This document shows positions 1 through 19,309 of a stretch of 28,107 nt of DNA, in pieces (within the stretch, counting starts at the first letter, position 1; every line of letters begins with the position of its first letter). This DNA is from a virus (taxonomy: Duplodnaviria; Caudoviricetes): the IMG/VR virus record IMGVR_UViG_3300025270_000064, positions 1 through 28,107 of that record; one strand, given 5' to 3'. The notes under the pieces are model-generated. The model worked only from the letters and a program-made list of their open reading frames with translations, was not told the DNA's origin and ran no database searches. The position numbers and the translations under genes were made by a program.

Positions 1-1443
1 ATCTAAATCAATACCAGTATTATTAACAGTACCCACCATTGTTGGCGAGTCACTATTCATATCTAAATCAAGACCGATATTAGTAGCAGTCTGACCAGAT
101 GCAGTTATACCAGTAGCATCAAAATCAAGATGTAAACTTCTTGTTGTAGCTGTAGTTGTAGCGGTTAGGTTAGAATCAATTAAAGCCGCAATAGCTGGGC
201 CATCTTGCTGTATCGCTAATGTTACTTGAGTATTTGACGCATGGTCGTTTCTCATAGTAACCAATGGGTCCGAACCTGATTCTGCAATATTGCGAGTAAA
301 AAAACCAGCATAACCACCACTGACATCCTGTATGGATTGTATACCATATTTACCTGTAATTTTTATAGCATCGTTACTTGCGGATTCACTATCGACCCTG
401 ATAGCACCAGCGTCATCATCTTGGTCAATAAATAACCGTGCATCATTTAGAACTAAATCATCTTCCGATGTGTCCCATGTCATGTTTGAACTGGCAGTGT
501 CTCCATAAAATATTACATCATAACCTTGGTTATCTGCGCCTATTGTAAGTGTACTGTCTAATTGTACTGCACCATCAATATCAACAGCGTCTAAGTTTGT
601 AATGCCGTCAACGTCTATATTAGCAGAAAAATAAGCGTGTCTACTTGTATCGAAATACAAAGCATAAGCTGGGGAAGAACCATACCATATACCAAATTCT
701 GTACCACCTGTTATTTCATAAGGGTCGCTACTTTCACCTGAAGCATGACCAATTCCCCATTCTAATGCACTTTCTCTATAAAATCTAATAATTCCATGTT
801 TATCAGAATTACCCTTCTTTAAATCAATATATTGGTCTGTTGTAGCCGCTCCAAAAGTTGATGTGCCAGCAACTGCTAACGTACTTGCCATGTCTACCGC
901 GCCATCAATATCAACAATGTCTAAGTTTGCAGTGCCATTAACATCAATATCACCTTCGATATCTACACTATCAGCAACTACTAAATTGCCATCAGCAATA
1001 TCTAAGGCTGTTGCACCGTTTGTACCTGTGATTGTTAGCTTTTCTGCGGATGAATCCCATGTGAAGTTGTCTCCAGCAGTATCACTATAAAATATTACAT
1101 CCGTTCCGCTTCCGTCAGCGCCAACAGTTAATGTACCAGATACATCAAGTGTGCCATTTACATCTATTGCGGTAGCTGTTAAATCAATTTCACTGCCACC
1201 AGCTATACTAAGAACAGAACCGCTGCCTGATATATACTCACCGCCAATATCATTAAAGTATAATTTATTTGTACTAGTTATACGAACACTGTCAGTTGAA
1301 AGTGCTAATGCACTTGACACTCCTACACCATCTTCTATAACTCTTGAATCAGTTGATGTTGCTACTAATCCAGCTGTATTGTCTTCAACATGTAATATTG
1401 AATCATAGGTATCTGCAATTTTTGAACCAGTTAATGTTGCCAT
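1..1443 (-). CDS. Tail fibre / receptor-binding-like virion protein (3'-truncated by window edge, >481 aa)
   Basis: Absent from the ORF track because it has no stop in the window. ATG at 1443 with GGAG upstream; open to base 1: MATLTGSKIADTYDSILHVEDNTAG...NNTGIDLD. G/T/D/S-rich beta-type composition with internal repeats (IDVNGT.., DIDGAV, TLTxGAD..DVIFY.DTA..xTWD). Confidence 0.75.
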   Translation of the reverse strand, partial: MATLTGSKIADTYDSILHVEDNTAGLVATSTDSRVIEDGVGVSSALALSTDSVRITSTNKLYFNDIGGEYISGSGSVLSIAGGSEIDLTATAIDVNGTLDVSGTLTVGADGSGTDVIFYSDTAGDNFTWDSSAEKLTITGTNGATALDIADGNLVVADSVDIEGDIDVNGTANLDIVDIDGAVDMASTLAVAGTSTFGAATTDQYIDLKKGNSDKHGIIRFYRESALEWGIGHASGESSDPYEITGGTEFGIWYGSSPAYALYFDTSRHAYFSANIDVDGITNLDAVDIDGAVQLDSTLTIGADNQGYDVIFYGDTASSNMTWDTSEDDLVLNDARLFIDQDDDAGAIRVDSESASNDAIKITGKYGIQSIQDVSGGYAGFFTRNIAESGSDPLVTMRNDHASNTQVTLAIQQDGPAIAALIDSNLTATTTATTRSLHLDFDATGITASGQTATNIGLDLDMNSDSPTMVGTVNNTGIDLD

Positions 1444-1455
1444 AATATCACTCCA

Positions 1456-1587
1456 TTAAGTCTCTTGTTCCCATACGTTGCCAGATGCTTCCCATAAACC
1501 AAGCTCATTTTCCCAAAACTGCTTTACAGCTGCTACTATTGTTACAGCCAAAGCTGATATTGATGCTCCTAATCCTAAACTTGGCAT
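1456..1587 (-). CDS. Small 43-aa protein (MPSLGLGASISALAVTIVAAVKQFWENELGLWEASGNVWEQET)
   Basis: Below the ORF-track cutoff. ATG overlaps the upstream stop (TAATG at 1589-1585), fills the gap, and its stop abuts the SD of the fibre gene. Confidence 0.7.
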   Translation of the reverse strand: MPSLGLGASISALAVTIVAAVKQFWENELGLWEASGNVWEQET

Positions 1588-3869: not shown

Positions 3870-6800
3870 TTATCTCCTGTATTGTTGTTGCTGCTGAGAT
3901 TGCGCCTGAGCAGCAATTGTTCTATTTATCATTTTTGAATTATTCTGAATATACTTAGTTATCTCATCTTGAGCCCAAACATAATACCTATCTGCCTGCT
4001 TTTCATAATGCTGTATATTCTGTACTGTTAAAGTAACTTCCTGTGTTTTATCAGATATCTCTGCCTGATACTTTTGCAGGTTAGCACTATATTCTTGTAA
4101 ATCTGTTGTCCTTTCAGCCTCCCACACACGTAGATCGCCTTCAAGATTTTGCTGATACTCTTGTACTTCAGTAGCTACTTTCAATTGATATTGTTGAAGT
4201 TCAGCAGAATACTTTTGAATCTTACTACTATTGTCAGCAATAACGTCTTCTATCTGTTTTGCTGCATTAGCAAGTGCAAGTGCTTGATCTTGAGCTTTAT
4301 TAAACTTATCAACATCAGTAGCTTGAGCTGATTCTTGCTCTGCATCTGCTCTATCTAATTGAGCTTGAGTTAAAACTTTCTGTAAATCTGAGTTATGTTT
4401 CGCTATTTCAGCTTGTATATTTGCTTGATATCTGACGTTTTCCTTATTGAATTCATTTAACTCATTCTGAATATCAGCCTGGAAAACTGCTATATTATCT
4501 GATTCAGTTTTTTGCCATGCTTGATAAGCTGTATTTACTTCCATTTGATATCTAGATATCTTTTGTGTGTACTCTTGTATCTCTTTACTAATATTAGCTT
4601 GATATGTGGCAGTTTCTGCTTGATATAGTGAAATTTTTCTTTGATTATCATTTACAACAGCCTGCATGTCATTAACACCATTCTGTAATTGTCTCTGTAA
4701 ATCCCTATCTTCATCAGTAGTAGCGGCTTGTAAGTCAGATTGAGCTTGAGCAAGATTAACTTGATTGGCAATCTGAATTTCCTGCATAGATTCCTGAATA
4801 GCAGATTGATAAGCAATATTTTCTTTATTGAACTCATTTAGTTCATTCTGTATATCGCTTCCATATTTCTGTAAGTCTGTTGTTCTCTCTGCTTGCCAAA
4901 CCTGTATATCACCAGCAAGATTTTGTTGATATTGTTGTACTTCTTTATTAATTGTTGCTTGGTATGTTTGAACTTCAGCTTGATACTTTTGAATTTTACG
5001 TGCTTCATGTGCGTCTAATAATTGTGCTTCTTGTAAGTATTCTTGCAGTATAGCTTGATACTTGGCATTTTCCTTATTGAACTCATTCAATTCATTTTGT
5101 ATATCACTGCCATACTTTTGCAAATCTGTCTGTCTTTCCGTCTGCCAGACTTGTATATCACCTTGAAGATTCTGTTGATATTCTTGAACTTGCTTATTCA
5201 CATCTTCACTGTATGTTTGAACTTCTGCTTGATATTTCTGTATCTTGCGAGCTTCATTTTGATCAAGCAACTGTGCTTCTTGTACATATTCTTGTAAGAT
5301 AGCTTGATATTTAACATTATCCTTGTTGAATTCATTTAGTTCATTTTGAATATCACTCGCATATTTTTGCAGATCAGTTTGCCTTTCTGCCTGCCATACT
5401 TGTATATCTCCAGCCAAATTTTGCTGGTACTCCTGTACCTCCTTGTTAACTACTGCCTGATATGTACCAACTTCTGCTTGATAAAGTGCAACCTTTCTAT
5501 TATTGTCCTGAACAATAGCCTGCATATCATTAGTACCATTTTGCAGCTGTCTTTGTTGATCTCTATCTTTATTGGTTGTTGCAAGCTGAAGATCGGATTG
5601 TGCTTTTGCAAGATTAACTCCATTAGCAACTTGAAGTTCTTGTATAGATTCTTGTATAGCAGACTGATACGCTATATTCTCCTTATTAAACTCATTTAAT
5701 TCGTTTTGAATATCACTTGCATACTTTTGTAAATCAGTCTGTCGTTCTGCTTCCCAAACTCTTAAATCCCCTTCAAGATTCTGTTGATATTCTTGAACTT
5801 CTTTAGCCACATCAGCTTGATATTTACTAATATTTGCCTGATATACTTGCAATTCAAGTGTATAATCTTGTATAGATGCCTGTAATGTTTGAGTAGCATT
5901 CTGAATATTAACATTCGTTGAAAGTTGCATTTGCTGTATAGCAGCTGTAGTTGATTGCTGCATTTTAGCAATAGATGCAGATGTGGACTGTTGCATTTTA
6001 GATATAGATGCGTTTACGTCATTAGACGCATTAGCAATAGAAGCTTGTACTAATGTTTGCATAGATGCATTATTAGTTGAGACATCATTAGCAGCATTTG
6101 CAATAGATGCTTGAGTACCATCGTTTGCATTTGATATAGCTACTTGAGTAGCTTGTCTAGCATCTTCAATAGTTGCCTGCATAGCAGCAGTTGAACTCTG
6201 CACTTCTGCTTGAAATGCACTTATATAAGAATTAATTTTTTGTATTTGAGCAGATGCTAATTCAACATCTTCCTCTCCCTCTATAAAATGTCCTATAGTA
6301 GACCACCATTGGTCTACCTCTAGTTGGTCAGCATGAACATCTATAGTATTATCAGTATCTAATATAGATACATCTGTTACTTCATCTCCATCTCCTCCAA
6401 CAGTAGGTTTTGTATAAGCAGATGCCGTTGAAGCCGTTGCGCTTGAAGCAGATGCATCGCCTGGAGCATCTGTATCTGACGTACCAGCAGCATCTGTTGG
6501 GCCATGTGTAATAGAATCAACAGCTTGAGTAATAGCATCTTGAGCTGCACTTACAGCATTACCAACTGAAGCATTTGAATATGAAATTGTTGGACTAGGA
6601 GGAGGAACAGGAGAAATAGCAGAAATAGATAAATCTGAAATCGTAGGTGTAGTCCCTAACGCAAGAACTGGCTTTGTATAGCCTGGAGCACTTCCAGTAT
6701 AAGTACTCGATGCAGCAACAGTTGCAGTTGTAAAAACAGGAGCACTAGCATCTAATGCAGAATCTATACTAGTAAAAGTTACAGATGTCAAAGATGGGAC

Positions 6801-8075
6801 TGCTGGAACTACTGCCGATATACTTAAATCTGAAATTGTAGGAGCTGCCCCCAATGCAATGACTGGTTTAGTATATGTCGGAGCGAAACTAGAAGGATCT
6901 GCAATAACTTGAGCAGATATTGACGGAACTGTTGGTACTACAGAAGTAATAGACAAATCTGAAATTGTTGGGGCAGCTTCTAATGATAATACAGGTTTAA
7001 TATATGTTGGAGCAAAGCTAGAGGGATCAGCAACAACCTGTGCAGATATTGATGGAACTGATGGAGGTACAGCACTAATACTCAAGTCAGATATTGTTGG
7101 AGCCGCTCCTAAAGCTACTACTGGTTTACTATAAGCAGGTGCTGATCCTGTATATACGCTAGATGCAGACAAAGTTGCAGTTGAGATTGTAGGCTTAACC
7201 ACATCTAAAGCGGTATCTACACTAGTAAAAGTAACAGACGTTAAAGATGGTACTGAAGGAGAAACAGATGTTAACGATAACACACCTGGATCACTGTCAC
7301 CAAATGGATTTCTATCCTCACTTTCATTAAAAAAATCTTCAAAAGATATTTGAGTTGGATGTCCTGGCTTTGTATAGCCTGGAACATCACCACTTATATC
7401 AGCTTTTGATACACTAGCTACTGTTATTGCCCCAACAGTAGTCGCACTTGCGTCTGCATTAGTAGCATCTGAATATGAAACTGTACTTATTGACGGTACA
7501 GCAGGTGGTACAGCAGAAACTGATAAATCAGAAATAGTAGGAGCTGCACCTAGTGAAGGAGCAACTGGCACTATAGGGGAGGACCAACTTGGAACAGTGC
7601 CTGTAGCCAGTTTTGCAAATTCCTGAGCAGATGCATGAAAAATAACTGCATTCCTTAAATCACAGTCATCATCTATCTGAGAATAATCCACATAATACAC
7701 ATACCCATCATTGCTTCCACCTGAAGAAGGATCTGGTTTTATGAATACCTTTCCCTGGGCATGATAGTATTTAGGATATAAATTAGTCGCTTTATGTAAA
7801 CTTGCACTATCATCAATCCACTTGCTCATACTGAATGGCACTTCAGAAGCAGGATAACCCTCCCTCTCAACTGCAAGCACACTATCAGCAGTTTGAACAT
7901 CGTATCCATTTGCATCTTGAATAGCTGAAGATTGTGAAGAAGCAAACCAAAGCAAATCTTTAGGAATGCTTGAAGCTATAAATCTTTGAGCAGAAACAAT
8001 AAAATCATCTGAAGCACCGTGTGCGGTTACTCCAGTTATTGAAACTATCTCAACTGATATGTTTGTTGTAGCCAT
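3870..8075 (-). CDS. 1401-aa virion protein: adaptor-like N-domain, six Pro/Ser/Thr-rich repeats, central turn, six Gln/Tyr-rich helical repeats
   Basis: Long ORF; repeats APTISDLS..VP..PS....YxKP and YxSDIQNELNEFNKEN...EYQQNLxGDxxVWxxERxTDLQK are directly visible. Confidence 0.85.
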   Translation of the reverse strand: MATTNISVEIVSITGVTAHGASDDFIVSAQRFIASSIPKDLLWFASSQSSAIQDANGYDVQTADSVLAVEREGYPASEVPFSMSKWIDDSASLHKATNLYPKYYHAQGKVFIKPDPSSGGSNDGYVYYVDYSQIDDDCDLRNAVIFHASAQEFAKLATGTVPSWSSPIVPVAPSLGAAPTISDLSVSAVPPAVPSISTVSYSDATNADASATTVGAITVASVSKADISGDVPGYTKPGHPTQISFEDFFNESEDRNPFGDSDPGVLSLTSVSPSVPSLTSVTFTSVDTALDVVKPTISTATLSASSVYTGSAPAYSKPVVALGAAPTISDLSISAVPPSVPSISAQVVADPSSFAPTYIKPVLSLEAAPTISDLSITSVVPTVPSISAQVIADPSSFAPTYTKPVIALGAAPTISDLSISAVVPAVPSLTSVTFTSIDSALDASAPVFTTATVAASSTYTGSAPGYTKPVLALGTTPTISDLSISAISPVPPPSPTISYSNASVGNAVSAAQDAITQAVDSITHGPTDAAGTSDTDAPGDASASSATASTASAYTKPTVGGDGDEVTDVSILDTDNTIDVHADQLEVDQWWSTIGHFIEGEEDVELASAQIQKINSYISAFQAEVQSSTAAMQATIEDARQATQVAISNANDGTQASIANAANDVSTNNASMQTLVQASIANASNDVNASISKMQQSTSASIAKMQQSTTAAIQQMQLSTNVNIQNATQTLQASIQDYTLELQVYQANISKYQADVAKEVQEYQQNLEGDLRVWEAERQTDLQKYASDIQNELNEFNKENIAYQSAIQESIQELQVANGVNLAKAQSDLQLATTNKDRDQQRQLQNGTNDMQAIVQDNNRKVALYQAEVGTYQAVVNKEVQEYQQNLAGDIQVWQAERQTDLQKYASDIQNELNEFNKDNVKYQAILQEYVQEAQLLDQNEARKIQKYQAEVQTYSEDVNKQVQEYQQNLQGDIQVWQTERQTDLQKYGSDIQNELNEFNKENAKYQAILQEYLQEAQLLDAHEARKIQKYQAEVQTYQATINKEVQQYQQNLAGDIQVWQAERTTDLQKYGSDIQNELNEFNKENIAYQSAIQESMQEIQIANQVNLAQAQSDLQAATTDEDRDLQRQLQNGVNDMQAVVNDNQRKISLYQAETATYQANISKEIQEYTQKISRYQMEVNTAYQAWQKTESDNIAVFQADIQNELNEFNKENVRYQANIQAEIAKHNSDLQKVLTQAQLDRADAEQESAQATDVDKFNKAQDQALALANAAKQIEDVIADNSSKIQKYSAELQQYQLKVATEVQEYQQNLEGDLRVWEAERTTDLQEYSANLQKYQAEISDKTQEVTLTVQNIQHYEKQADRYYVWAQDEITKYIQNNSKMINRTIAAQAQSQQQQQYRR
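4090..6214 (-). repeat. Coding repeats, alpha-helical units of about 164, 120, 83, 83, 127 and 131 aa
   Basis: DIQNELNEFNKxN occurs five times; units counted by hand from the translation. Confidence 0.85.
6404..7570 (-). repeat. Coding repeats, Pro/Ser/Thr-rich units of about 66, 81, 43, 43, 65 and 88 aa
   Basis: Each unit ends in YxKP; five of six contain PTISDLS. Confidence 0.85.
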
Positions 8076-18286: not shown

Positions 18287-18314
18287 TAAAGGGGGTATTA
18301 ATTTATCCCCTTTA
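18287..18314 (+). terminator. Intrinsic terminator-like hairpin
   Basis: UAAAGGGGGUA-UUAAUU-UAUCCCCUUUA. Confidence 0.6.
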
Positions 18315-18316
18315 TA

Positions 18317-19133
18317 ACCTGTATTGTTGTTGTTTGTACCATAGATGAGTCTATACCAGACAGCATGAGCCAGTAAGCAGACCATTGGTAGTCATGTCAT
18401 AGCTTATAGGTATATATATGCGGTAACTTATACCAAACTGGACTAAGCCAGTATAAATAGATGTTAAGCTTAGTGCGTTAGTACAAATGTACTAGATCAT
18501 ACTCATAGTTATACTATGATTATCTTGGACGAGGTAGTCATAGTTGTATGATATCTCTTCTTGTACTTGTCACCAGCAAATATGGTTGAGATAAAGTATT
18601 AACAGTCTAGTAAGTGTGGTGCTTATTAGGTTGCAGTGAAAGTCTGTACTCTGAGTGATGGCGGGATAAACACGACAATGTTTGCCCCTGCAAATGTACA
18701 AAAGCATGCTGCATGGTTGCCACCTAGCAACACAGGACATGTAGATATGTAAGTAGGTACAGTGCCTGTCATCATTACAGTTTCACTCTTACAAAGGATC
18801 ACCTTGACGTGGTGTAAGAGCTTTTAACTAACGATCCAAAGCGTCCTCCTCTTGGGACATTAAAGTACAAGTGACATATTCTAGTGTAAGTCAATTAAAT
18901 TGCTCTAGATGAGTTGAGGATAACTATCTCGTAAAATAAGTGTTTCTACAAGTCCGTCTCGTTTAGCGGGTAGCTGCAGTAGATACATCGTGCTTTGATC
19001 AAGTTTCTGGAATTAATTACTCTGGATTTAACGGTGGGCGATGAGGGATTTAATCACCCAGAGACGTTGGAAGGACGTTGGTACAGTTGATACAGCTAAG
19101 ATGCCTACACTGTAATACTTTAATCATGTATCT
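18317..19133 (+). ncRNA. ~820-nt non-coding region of consecutive structured RNA modules
   Basis: No ORF of 60 aa or more; more than 15 helices found by eye, many with G-U pairs that only work on the + strand. Confidence 0.65.
18786..18837 (+). ncRNA. Minimal HDV-like (theta-type) ribozyme fold, variant
   Basis: P1 CUCUUAC/GUAAGAG, J1/2 AAA, P2 GGAUC/GAUCC, P3 ACC/GGU, L3 UUGACGU, no P4, J4/2 CUAAC. Confidence 0.55.
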
Positions 19134-19150
19134 TTAGAAGGGAGATTGAC

Positions 19151-19309
19151 ATGAAAGATTGTGAACATAGAATATTTCATATGTCCTGTACTGTATGTTG
19201 GTATAAGATGGCCAAAGGTGTATTTAAGAGATCATCTAAACAATCTAATACTAGTGGTTATGAATTTGTGATAAATGATCCAGATGATGGTAGTTGGAAG
19301 GGGAGATAG
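19151..19309 (+). CDS. 52-aa CxH/CxxC metal-binding protein
   Basis: Not in the track: MKDCEHRIFHMSCTVCWYKMAKG...WKGR; AAGGGAG SD. Confidence 0.65.
   Translation: MKDCEHRIFHMSCTVCWYKMAKGVFKRSSKQSNTSGYEFVINDPDDGSWKGR

Follow-up and report, generated by a model that had tools for sequence, protein, structure and literature searches.

Ribozymes of the HDV class are usually described with a purine at the first nucleotide after the cleavage site (+1). Excerpts of two reviews (PMC8495972 and PMC11331408) state a purine, G1, at this position as a rule, call G1 invariant and treat the G-U pair that it forms as essential. Two natural variants, both originating from Weinberg et al. 2015 and analysed by Luo et al. 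2026 (PMC13635239, in excerpt), broaden this picture. The C. briggsae variant, for which a structure has been solved, is cut between U-1 and C1 at 9.3 per minute and has a P1.1 made of U:A plus C:U; the Ackermannviridae phage variant has a P1.1 of U:A plus U:U and cleaves at 4.2-4.6 per minute. A C-to-U change abolishes activity in both, and G25A in the C. briggsae RNA leaves no visible cleavage in 60 s. (The preprint of this paper has 'C-1 and U1' twice; the journal version has U-1 and C1.) The statement that canonical members have a purine at +1, from which the first-pass annotation of the DNA studied here set out, thus reproduces a printed rule but is out of date, and because a natural C1 variant is fast and solved, a C at this position is less surprising than was claimed and is not in itself new.

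The tRNA-associated table of Kienbeck et al. 2024 (PMC10879173, in excerpt) contains the canonical core, in which C22 pairs with G38 in P1.1, 463 times and the flipped core, with G22-C38, 0 times; in the accompanying minimal-drz file, all 94 rows sampled out of 6,037 are G-initial with C22-G38. Here we describe a 52-nt element of a Caudoviricetes virus that combines C at +1 with G22-C38, and its relatives in other phage contigs.

A predicted HDV-like fold in a non-coding gap

The window, that is, the whole stretch of DNA analysed (28,107 nucleotides), is a 28.1-kb linear virus record with a completeness of about 50%. Among the 30 proteins scanned, those for terminase, a P22-like portal and capsid are encoded leftward, and Sak4-like, primase-helicase and Gam-like proteins rightward; a 1401-aa ORF in the structural block (3870-8075, minus strand) has no PHROG match. 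The HDV-like element occupies part of a non-coding gap of 1 kb, close to where the rightward block begins, within a cluster of non-coding RNAs. No tRNA gene was found in the whole window, in agreement with the original description of the element as lacking an adjacent tRNA. Promoter and terminator scans of the window returned what chance predicts (8 matches against 8.8 expected, and 1 against 1.3, respectively). A GC-rich hairpin directly 3' of a 96-codon ORF (18288-18313, plus strand) received no terminator call. The parts of the element, all on the plus strand and read from the sequence unless another basis is given, are as follows.

18786..18837, plus: minimal P4-less HDV-type double pseudoknot with C1-G37 and G22-C38 (sequence, descriptor, shuffles and family covariation)
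Between A18785 and C18786, plus: predicted cut (descriptor fold)
18786-92 with 18814-20, plus: P1, CUCUUAC with GUAAGAG, seven Watson-Crick pairs, the first C-G
18793-95, plus: J1/2, AAA
18796-800 with 18833-37, plus: P2, GGAUC with GAUCC, 5 bp
18801-03 with 18811-13, plus: P3, ACC with GGU
18804-10, plus: L3, UUGACGU, with U20 at 18804, G22 at 18806 and G25 at 18809
18821, plus: P1.1 partner, C18821, directly after P1 and able to pair with G18806
18822-27, plus: linker in place of P4, UUUUAA
From 18828, plus: J4/2, CUAAC (5 nt), opening with C18828, the predicted general acid
18805 with 18822, plus: predicted U21-U39 pair

All helices lie where they had been placed in the first-pass annotation, in the strand order of the HDV nested double pseudoknot: P1, within the usual 6-7 bp, encloses P3 and L3 across 18786..18820 (plus strand), and P2, P3 and P1.1 follow in nested order. 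L3 contains both U20 (U18804) and G25 (G18809), the reverse-wobble partners and metal site of HDV-like ribozymes. The Watson-Crick pair of P1.1, which joins position 22 in L3 to the nucleotide following P1, is present in inverted form (G18806-C18821), and position +1 holds C18786 in place of the textbook purine, usually a G in a G-U pair. Both inversions that the annotation had reported, C at +1 paired with G and a G in L3 facing a C after P1, can be read in the sequence. Its putative catalytic C18828 also stands, whereas the J4/2 that it gave as CUAA is one nucleotide longer.

A descriptor in which +1 and P1.1 were left free, run on both strands of the window, matches 18786-18837 alone and gave 0 matches in 300 dinucleotide shuffles. 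None of the Rfam HDV families reaches its cut-off in the window; RF02682 scores 9.6 bits at 18787-18819, which is no evidence by itself because the same model also responds in 9 of 14 control genomes. In folding predictions that include the upstream RNA, P1 pairs have probabilities of 0.81-0.96, and the pairs of P2 and P3, under a model unable to form pseudoknots, 0.01-0.02; the predicted nested fold favours a competing hairpin, 18799-802 with 18809-12, in which G25 would be hidden. These predictions, and a P2 of just 5 bp, count against the reading of this member as a ribozyme. Within the lineage of the window P1 has undergone compensatory changes, and P2 a compensatory change in two relatives (L473/L408).

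A family of C-initial phage sequences

The descriptor search proposed in the first-pass annotation, allowing C1-G and the swapped P1.1, yields a single match in the window and a widespread family in other phages. The flipped-core fold is not a one-off: pattern scans found about 86 distinct C1 sequences in phage contigs. A viral scan with the core plus G37-C38, covering 41 of 64 parts, gave at least 124 usable matches, and in 62 of the 124 a perfect 7-bp P1 partner stood 7-15 nt upstream, as against 4% when P1 halves were exchanged between matches. This pattern did not fix +1, and 51 of the 56 distinct P1-forming sequences that it found are C-initial. Across scans at least 59 distinct sequences were parsed as C1-G37/G22-C38, of which 3 (L057, L067 and L071) were removed as chance matches before counting; the remaining 56, one of them identical to that of the window, carry C1-G37 without exception. 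With other outer P3 pairs allowed, a scan yielded 66 matches, of which 35 are distinct; removal of L513, L514, L524 and L543 left 31 that fold, 30 with C1 and 1 with U1. All 3 matches in a species-genome collection fold fully, and the named crAssphage record MH552500.1 contains one member.

Covariation was assessed in 12 members picked from the 56 for equal spacing, with the window's own member left out. In this alignment 6 of 7 P1 pairs and 6 of 6 P2 pairs are changed on both sides, a count biased towards structure because the sequences had been selected as already paired, a bias that the swap control does not share; related phages are, besides, not independent. Of the cells in the alignment, 99.5% are paired, compared with 32-48% when it is slid. 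At the outer P3 position, A-U, G-C and C-G pairs are all found. Certain members carry a genuine P4 hairpin, and one of these (L056) scores 23.5 bits against RF02682 (cut-off 44). Some contigs hold two members (L053, L068, L085, L138/L139, L033/L034 and L538/L539), in some cases 370-760 nt apart; L053 additionally encodes two tRNA-like genes and shows, at 1081-1183, one more HDV-like match, a weak one. The C22 core that L415/L419/L420/L424 have at a comparable position was not parsed as a ribozyme. The short helices of the element and the lack of any Rfam HDV score above cut-off are what a chance arrangement of short complementary stretches would give; the covarying family, with about 86 distinct relatives, and the empty shuffles refute that reading of 18786-18837, which we regard as wholly improbable.

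The residues expected to matter for catalysis were examined separately. With J4/2 outside the search pattern and P2 chosen blind, 41 of 45 sequences have a C at 4-5 nt ahead of P2, and 7-12 of the same 45 have one at control offsets. Inspection by eye attributes three of the four misses (L031, L093 and L139, which have CUAA) to a wrong P2 register and the fourth (L067) to a chance match; two passes (L064 and L071) are false. U39 is invariant (56 of 56); U20 and G25 were fixed by the search patterns, so family counts do not bear on their conservation. L064 apparently has an A at the catalytic position, L393-L397 carry G25A and L408/L410 carry C24U, sequence changes that point to possible decay in close relatives.

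Taken together, the comparative evidence indicates that 18786-18837 is very probably an active self-cleaving ribozyme. The suggestion of a variant ribozyme cutting after A18785 gains support from both flips being kept, from covariation in P1, P2 and P3 and from the J4/2 cytosine, with cleavage itself as a prediction; we place the cut with good confidence exactly at A18785/C18786. The other branch of that suggestion, a catalytically weak structural mimic, is disfavoured by the covarying, widespread family and the conserved J4/2 cytosine. A fold kept purely for its structure (an exonuclease block, folding insulator or translation element), cutting slowly or never, would suit the status given to G1 and the G-U pair in the excerpts of PMC8495972 and PMC11331408, the G25A or C24U of lineage members and the predicted competing hairpin. 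It sits poorly with a J4/2 cytosine that has no pairing role and is nevertheless kept, with a natural C1 variant among the fastest HDV ribozymes (PMC13635239, in excerpt) and with flipped-P1.1 members located exactly at tRNA ends, and we consider it unlikely. Were the cut to fall one nucleotide earlier, before A18785, position +1 of this copy would be a purine, and in a single case (L141) one nucleotide separates the encoded tRNA CCA from C1, so that the earlier cut would give an exact CCA end. Across the family, however, such a shift restores no purine rule, since the 56 have A (27), U (24) or C (5) at position -1; C1-G37 is moreover invariant and the solved C1 variant cuts at U-1/C1 (PMC13635239, in excerpt), which makes the shifted cut very improbable.

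Strictly, the two flips do not amount to a single compensatory event. In the scans, three states were distinguished. Sequences of the ACC-UUCACGU-GGU type combine G1-U with C22-G38 (at least 30 distinct, 19 at tRNA ends). A second state joins G1-U or G1-C to G22-C38 (7 distinct, all 7 at tRNA 3' ends, 6 of them from one tRNA-Arg lineage), and the third is C1-G with G22-C38 (at least 56 distinct, 1 at a tRNA end). When both positions were left free, G22 went with C38 and C22 with G38 in structure-valid matches. The combination of C1-G37 with C22-G38 occurred in 0 of 119 C22 matches, for the one core ACC-UUCACGU-GGU in 44 of 64 parts scanned. The crAss-like phage cr272_1 (L545) has, at about 1500-1570, C1-G with U22-A38, a G at position 20 and a P4; this fold lies 150 nt after a RAGATH-1 hammerhead and resembles the published U:A variants. 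The P1.1 flip therefore does not need C1, and C1 was seen only where C22 is absent. The 'compensatory-looking swap' of the first-pass annotation holds in that both flips are present, but the seven G1/G22-C38 sequences and L545 speak against a single event. Those seven (L203, L206, L212, L213, L218, L222 and L233) are tRNA-adjacent and theta-like, and were probably missed by the published descriptor. A possible reason for the flips lies in P1, which has 6 bp in 19 of 30 canonical members, with C22 taking the next G: canonical minimal ribozymes could use a P1 of 6 or 7 bp because C22 takes the G following P1, and C22 would then compete for G37, so that C1-G37 may be safe only once position 22 is not C.

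Neighbouring RNAs and a predicted transcript-processing role

The contexts of the C1 members differ from those of canonical ones. A tRNA lies immediately upstream in 1 of 56, against 19 of 30 canonical sequences, and in 0 of 35 from the scan with other outer P3 pairs; the one case (L141) takes up the spacer that separates tRNA-Asn from tRNA-Thr. Of 53 distinct contexts, 43 have a stable stem that ends no more than 6 nt from the predicted cut (14-21 at shifted windows), and 33 have an ATG opening at least 40 codons within 60 nt after the ribozyme (5 of 53 antisense). One group is flanked on one side by a gene that is capsid-like by a weak PHROG match (1 of 2 tested, E 0.001) and on the other by the ORF that comes next. 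A T-loop-like motif stands 30-80 nt upstream of the cut in 12 of 56 C1 members (L005, L012, L031, L033, L037, L064, L076, L081, L102, L127, L382 and L384) and in 0 of 30 canonical ones; after it come a long hairpin and an A-rich tail that adjoins the ribozyme, an arrangement also seen in L478. Anti-Shine-Dalgarno-like C-rich stretches occur upstream in 21 and downstream in 6 of 56 (canonical, 5 and 4 of 30), with upstream examples in L026, L044, L080, L117, L118, L124, L005 and L056 and at about 18719-18726 in the window. Otherwise different phages (L093, L138, L139 and L014) share a motif 100-190 nt before the cut, which by eye is also present upstream in L545.

The element's own neighbours were compared across 80 terminase-linked loci and 13 metagenome loci.

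18437..18501, plus: pistol ribozyme (Rfam RF02679, 62.5 bits, cut-off 34.5)
Between A18496 and U18497, plus: pistol cut predicted from the model alignment
18640..18780, plus: module A, a structured RNA domain (fold), its closing stem ending 5 nt before the predicted HDV-like cut
18842..19116, plus: module C, a structured RNA of about 220-280 nt (covariation)

The pistol ribozyme, at 18437-18501 the sole Rfam match above cut-off in the window, has a predicted cut at A-U rather than at the consensus G-U. It recurs in L466, L475 and L476 and was not found in L006, L393, L408, L472, L473 or L474, all of which retain module A and the HDV-like fold; module A itself is conserved in L006, L393, L408, L466 and L472-L476. 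Module C, which opens with a hairpin bearing a pyrimidine-rich loop, has 14 of 43 predicted pairs changed on both sides among 11 sequences and no Rfam match at E<=10, and may be an undescribed phage RNA family. It also occurs in L393, L398, L466 and L472-L476, and without the ribozyme in L452, L467, L477 and L400; a viral scan for its 3' motif gave 14 matches, 11 of them unrelated. Long-range pairing between modules A and C, proposed from two sequences, was dropped because module C occurs without module A. The parts are shuffled among relatives: L408 joins module A and the ribozyme to different downstream DNA, and in L473 an insert separates them from module C. On the reverse strand of L473, at about 1000-1025, a second copy comprising the ribozyme 3' end only precedes module C after the insert, and is likely a recombination scar. 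L408 also encodes a GOLLD RNA (178.7 bits; 1086-1503, minus strand), which lies downstream of its HDV-like fold at a distance of about 960 nt and marks the gap as a non-coding RNA hot spot in this phage group.

A search among RNA runs returned 5, none of which contained half of the query words. Five RNA-library contigs from 4 RNA runs (18592-18660, 18611-18739, 18819-18969, 18821-19076 and 18843-18993) fall within 18300-19300, at a depth of 2-9 and with 2-18 differing letters; three contigs, from three studies, lie on module C (depth 2-3). None of the five bridges 18785/18786, and another run (X4) likewise has no cover at 18786-18862. Given that gap, contigs that carry neither ends nor strand, and libraries that may contain DNA, the unbridged junction is no evidence for cleavage.

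We consider it likely that the element is a minimal HDV-class ribozyme, predicted to be active, that provides a protein-free processing site on the rightward transcript; for the transcript-processing role taken alone the balance tips modestly in favour. The rightward phage transcript would be cut between A18785 and C18786. By analogy with the solved HDV variants, C18828 would act as proton donor to the 5' leaving group, with a Mg2+ close to the U18804-G18809 pair activating the 2'-OH of A18785. The upstream product would be the module A stem with a 5-nt tail ending in a 2',3'-cyclic phosphate; the downstream one would have a 5'-OH and the folded ribozyme at its head, with module C and the next small genes behind them. 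The purpose may be to split the transcript into end-protected pieces, in the manner of the RNase III sites of T7 early RNA. An earlier proposal, that cleavage matures the upstream RNA, fits a hairpin ending just before the cut, but the downstream ORF start or, here, module C seems equally likely to matter. In the window the first ATG after the element is 313 nt away, so a role as an 'mRNA cap' does not directly apply there.

The pistol ribozyme raises a different prospect, in which it and the HDV-like element excise a defined 289-nt RNA (18497-18785), bearing a 5'-OH and a cyclic phosphate at its ends, that an RtcB-type ligase could circularise. A pistol stands 289 nt upstream in the window and also upstream in L466, L475 and L476, RAGATH-1 hammerheads precede C1 members by about 150-290 nt in L060 and L545, and the 289-nt piece outperforms shuffled versions in predicted folding (z -2.2). 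Against this, the six relatives named above keep module A and the HDV-like fold where no pistol was found, the two ends of the piece show no pairing with each other in the predicted folds of the window, L060, L466, L475 and L476, and no RNA ligase is among the 30 window proteins scanned, in a record about 50% complete. We hold such excision to be improbable as the main function and keep transcript splitting as the preferred reading. A broader scenario, which we offer tentatively as a minority view, is that the family is a phage-wide, undescribed minimal HDV branch, invisible to G1-based searches, that left tRNA processing and now serves protein-free transcript processing. C1-G would have arisen only after C22 was lost, the tRNA-linked G1/G22-C38 sequences would be a living intermediate, and in some phages a pistol or hammerhead partner would excise a ligatable small RNA.

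If the family is active, current searches whose descriptors prescribe G1 and C22-G38 overlook a good part of the HDV-like ribozymes in phages: in comparable scans for this core the flipped form has at least 56 distinct sequences and the canonical form at least 30. The family would also supply a testable answer on phage ribozymes that lie away from tRNAs (a cut after a hairpin and before a gene) and a natural three-state series (G1/C22, G1/G22 and C1/G22) for epistasis at the cleavage site. An active 52-nt C-initial ribozyme could be used to make defined RNA ends. The surprise is limited, as a fast C1 variant has already been solved.

Comparison with known systems

In the literature searched, with most subscription papers outside reach, we found no report of a C1-G/G22-C38 phage family, and no tested ribozyme with G22-C38 was found in the literature examined. 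The excerpts of PMC9901934, PMC3774820, PMC4870747 and PMC5737381 contain nothing on such a variant, and those of PMC9901934 hold no pairwise mutagenesis data for the HDV +1 pair or the first P1.1 pair. What may be new here is a P4-less C1 family with a G-C P1.1. The family is set apart from the known variants by way of their published description. The RAGATH-1 motif reportedly comes from screens of the laboratory behind the HDV-variant alignment, and, as it stands upstream in two C1 cases, it becomes more likely that this alignment, that of Weinberg et al. 2015, already includes the family, as it may.

The T7 early RNA is processed at RNase III sites that split a long phage transcript. The predicted split in the window likewise leaves an upstream piece ending in a hairpin; unlike those sites, the window's cut would be RNA-catalysed and would leave 5'-OH and cyclic-phosphate ends. 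The HDV genomic, CPEB3 and HDV-F. prausnitzii (RF02682) ribozymes have the same nested double pseudoknot strand order and catalytic C, and differ in having a purine at +1, C22-G38 and a P4. Closer in form are the theta and minimal drzs (PMC10879173, in excerpt; drz-Mtgn-1), which share with the element its P4-less fold, ACC/GGU P3, 7-nt L3 ending in ACGU, U-rich linker, CUAA in J4/2 and phage origin. The element falls outside the published theta descriptor (G1 with C22-G38, as judged from the part of its hits available), and theta members follow tRNAs, with cuts within 5 nt of the tRNA 3' end, a setting found in the family in L141 and absent from the window. The C. briggsae and Ackermannviridae variants have in common with it a Watson-Crick P1.1 pair other than C22-G38 together with a pyrimidine-U pair, A23, U20-G25 and the catalytic C; the former also has C at +1 and the latter a phage origin. 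They differ in their U:A P1.1 and P4 stem, where the window, as most of the family, has G-C and no P4. As far as sequence can tell, the element is HDV-like in its working and is not a tRNA-associated theta ribozyme, and its closest counterparts are the published C1 variants.
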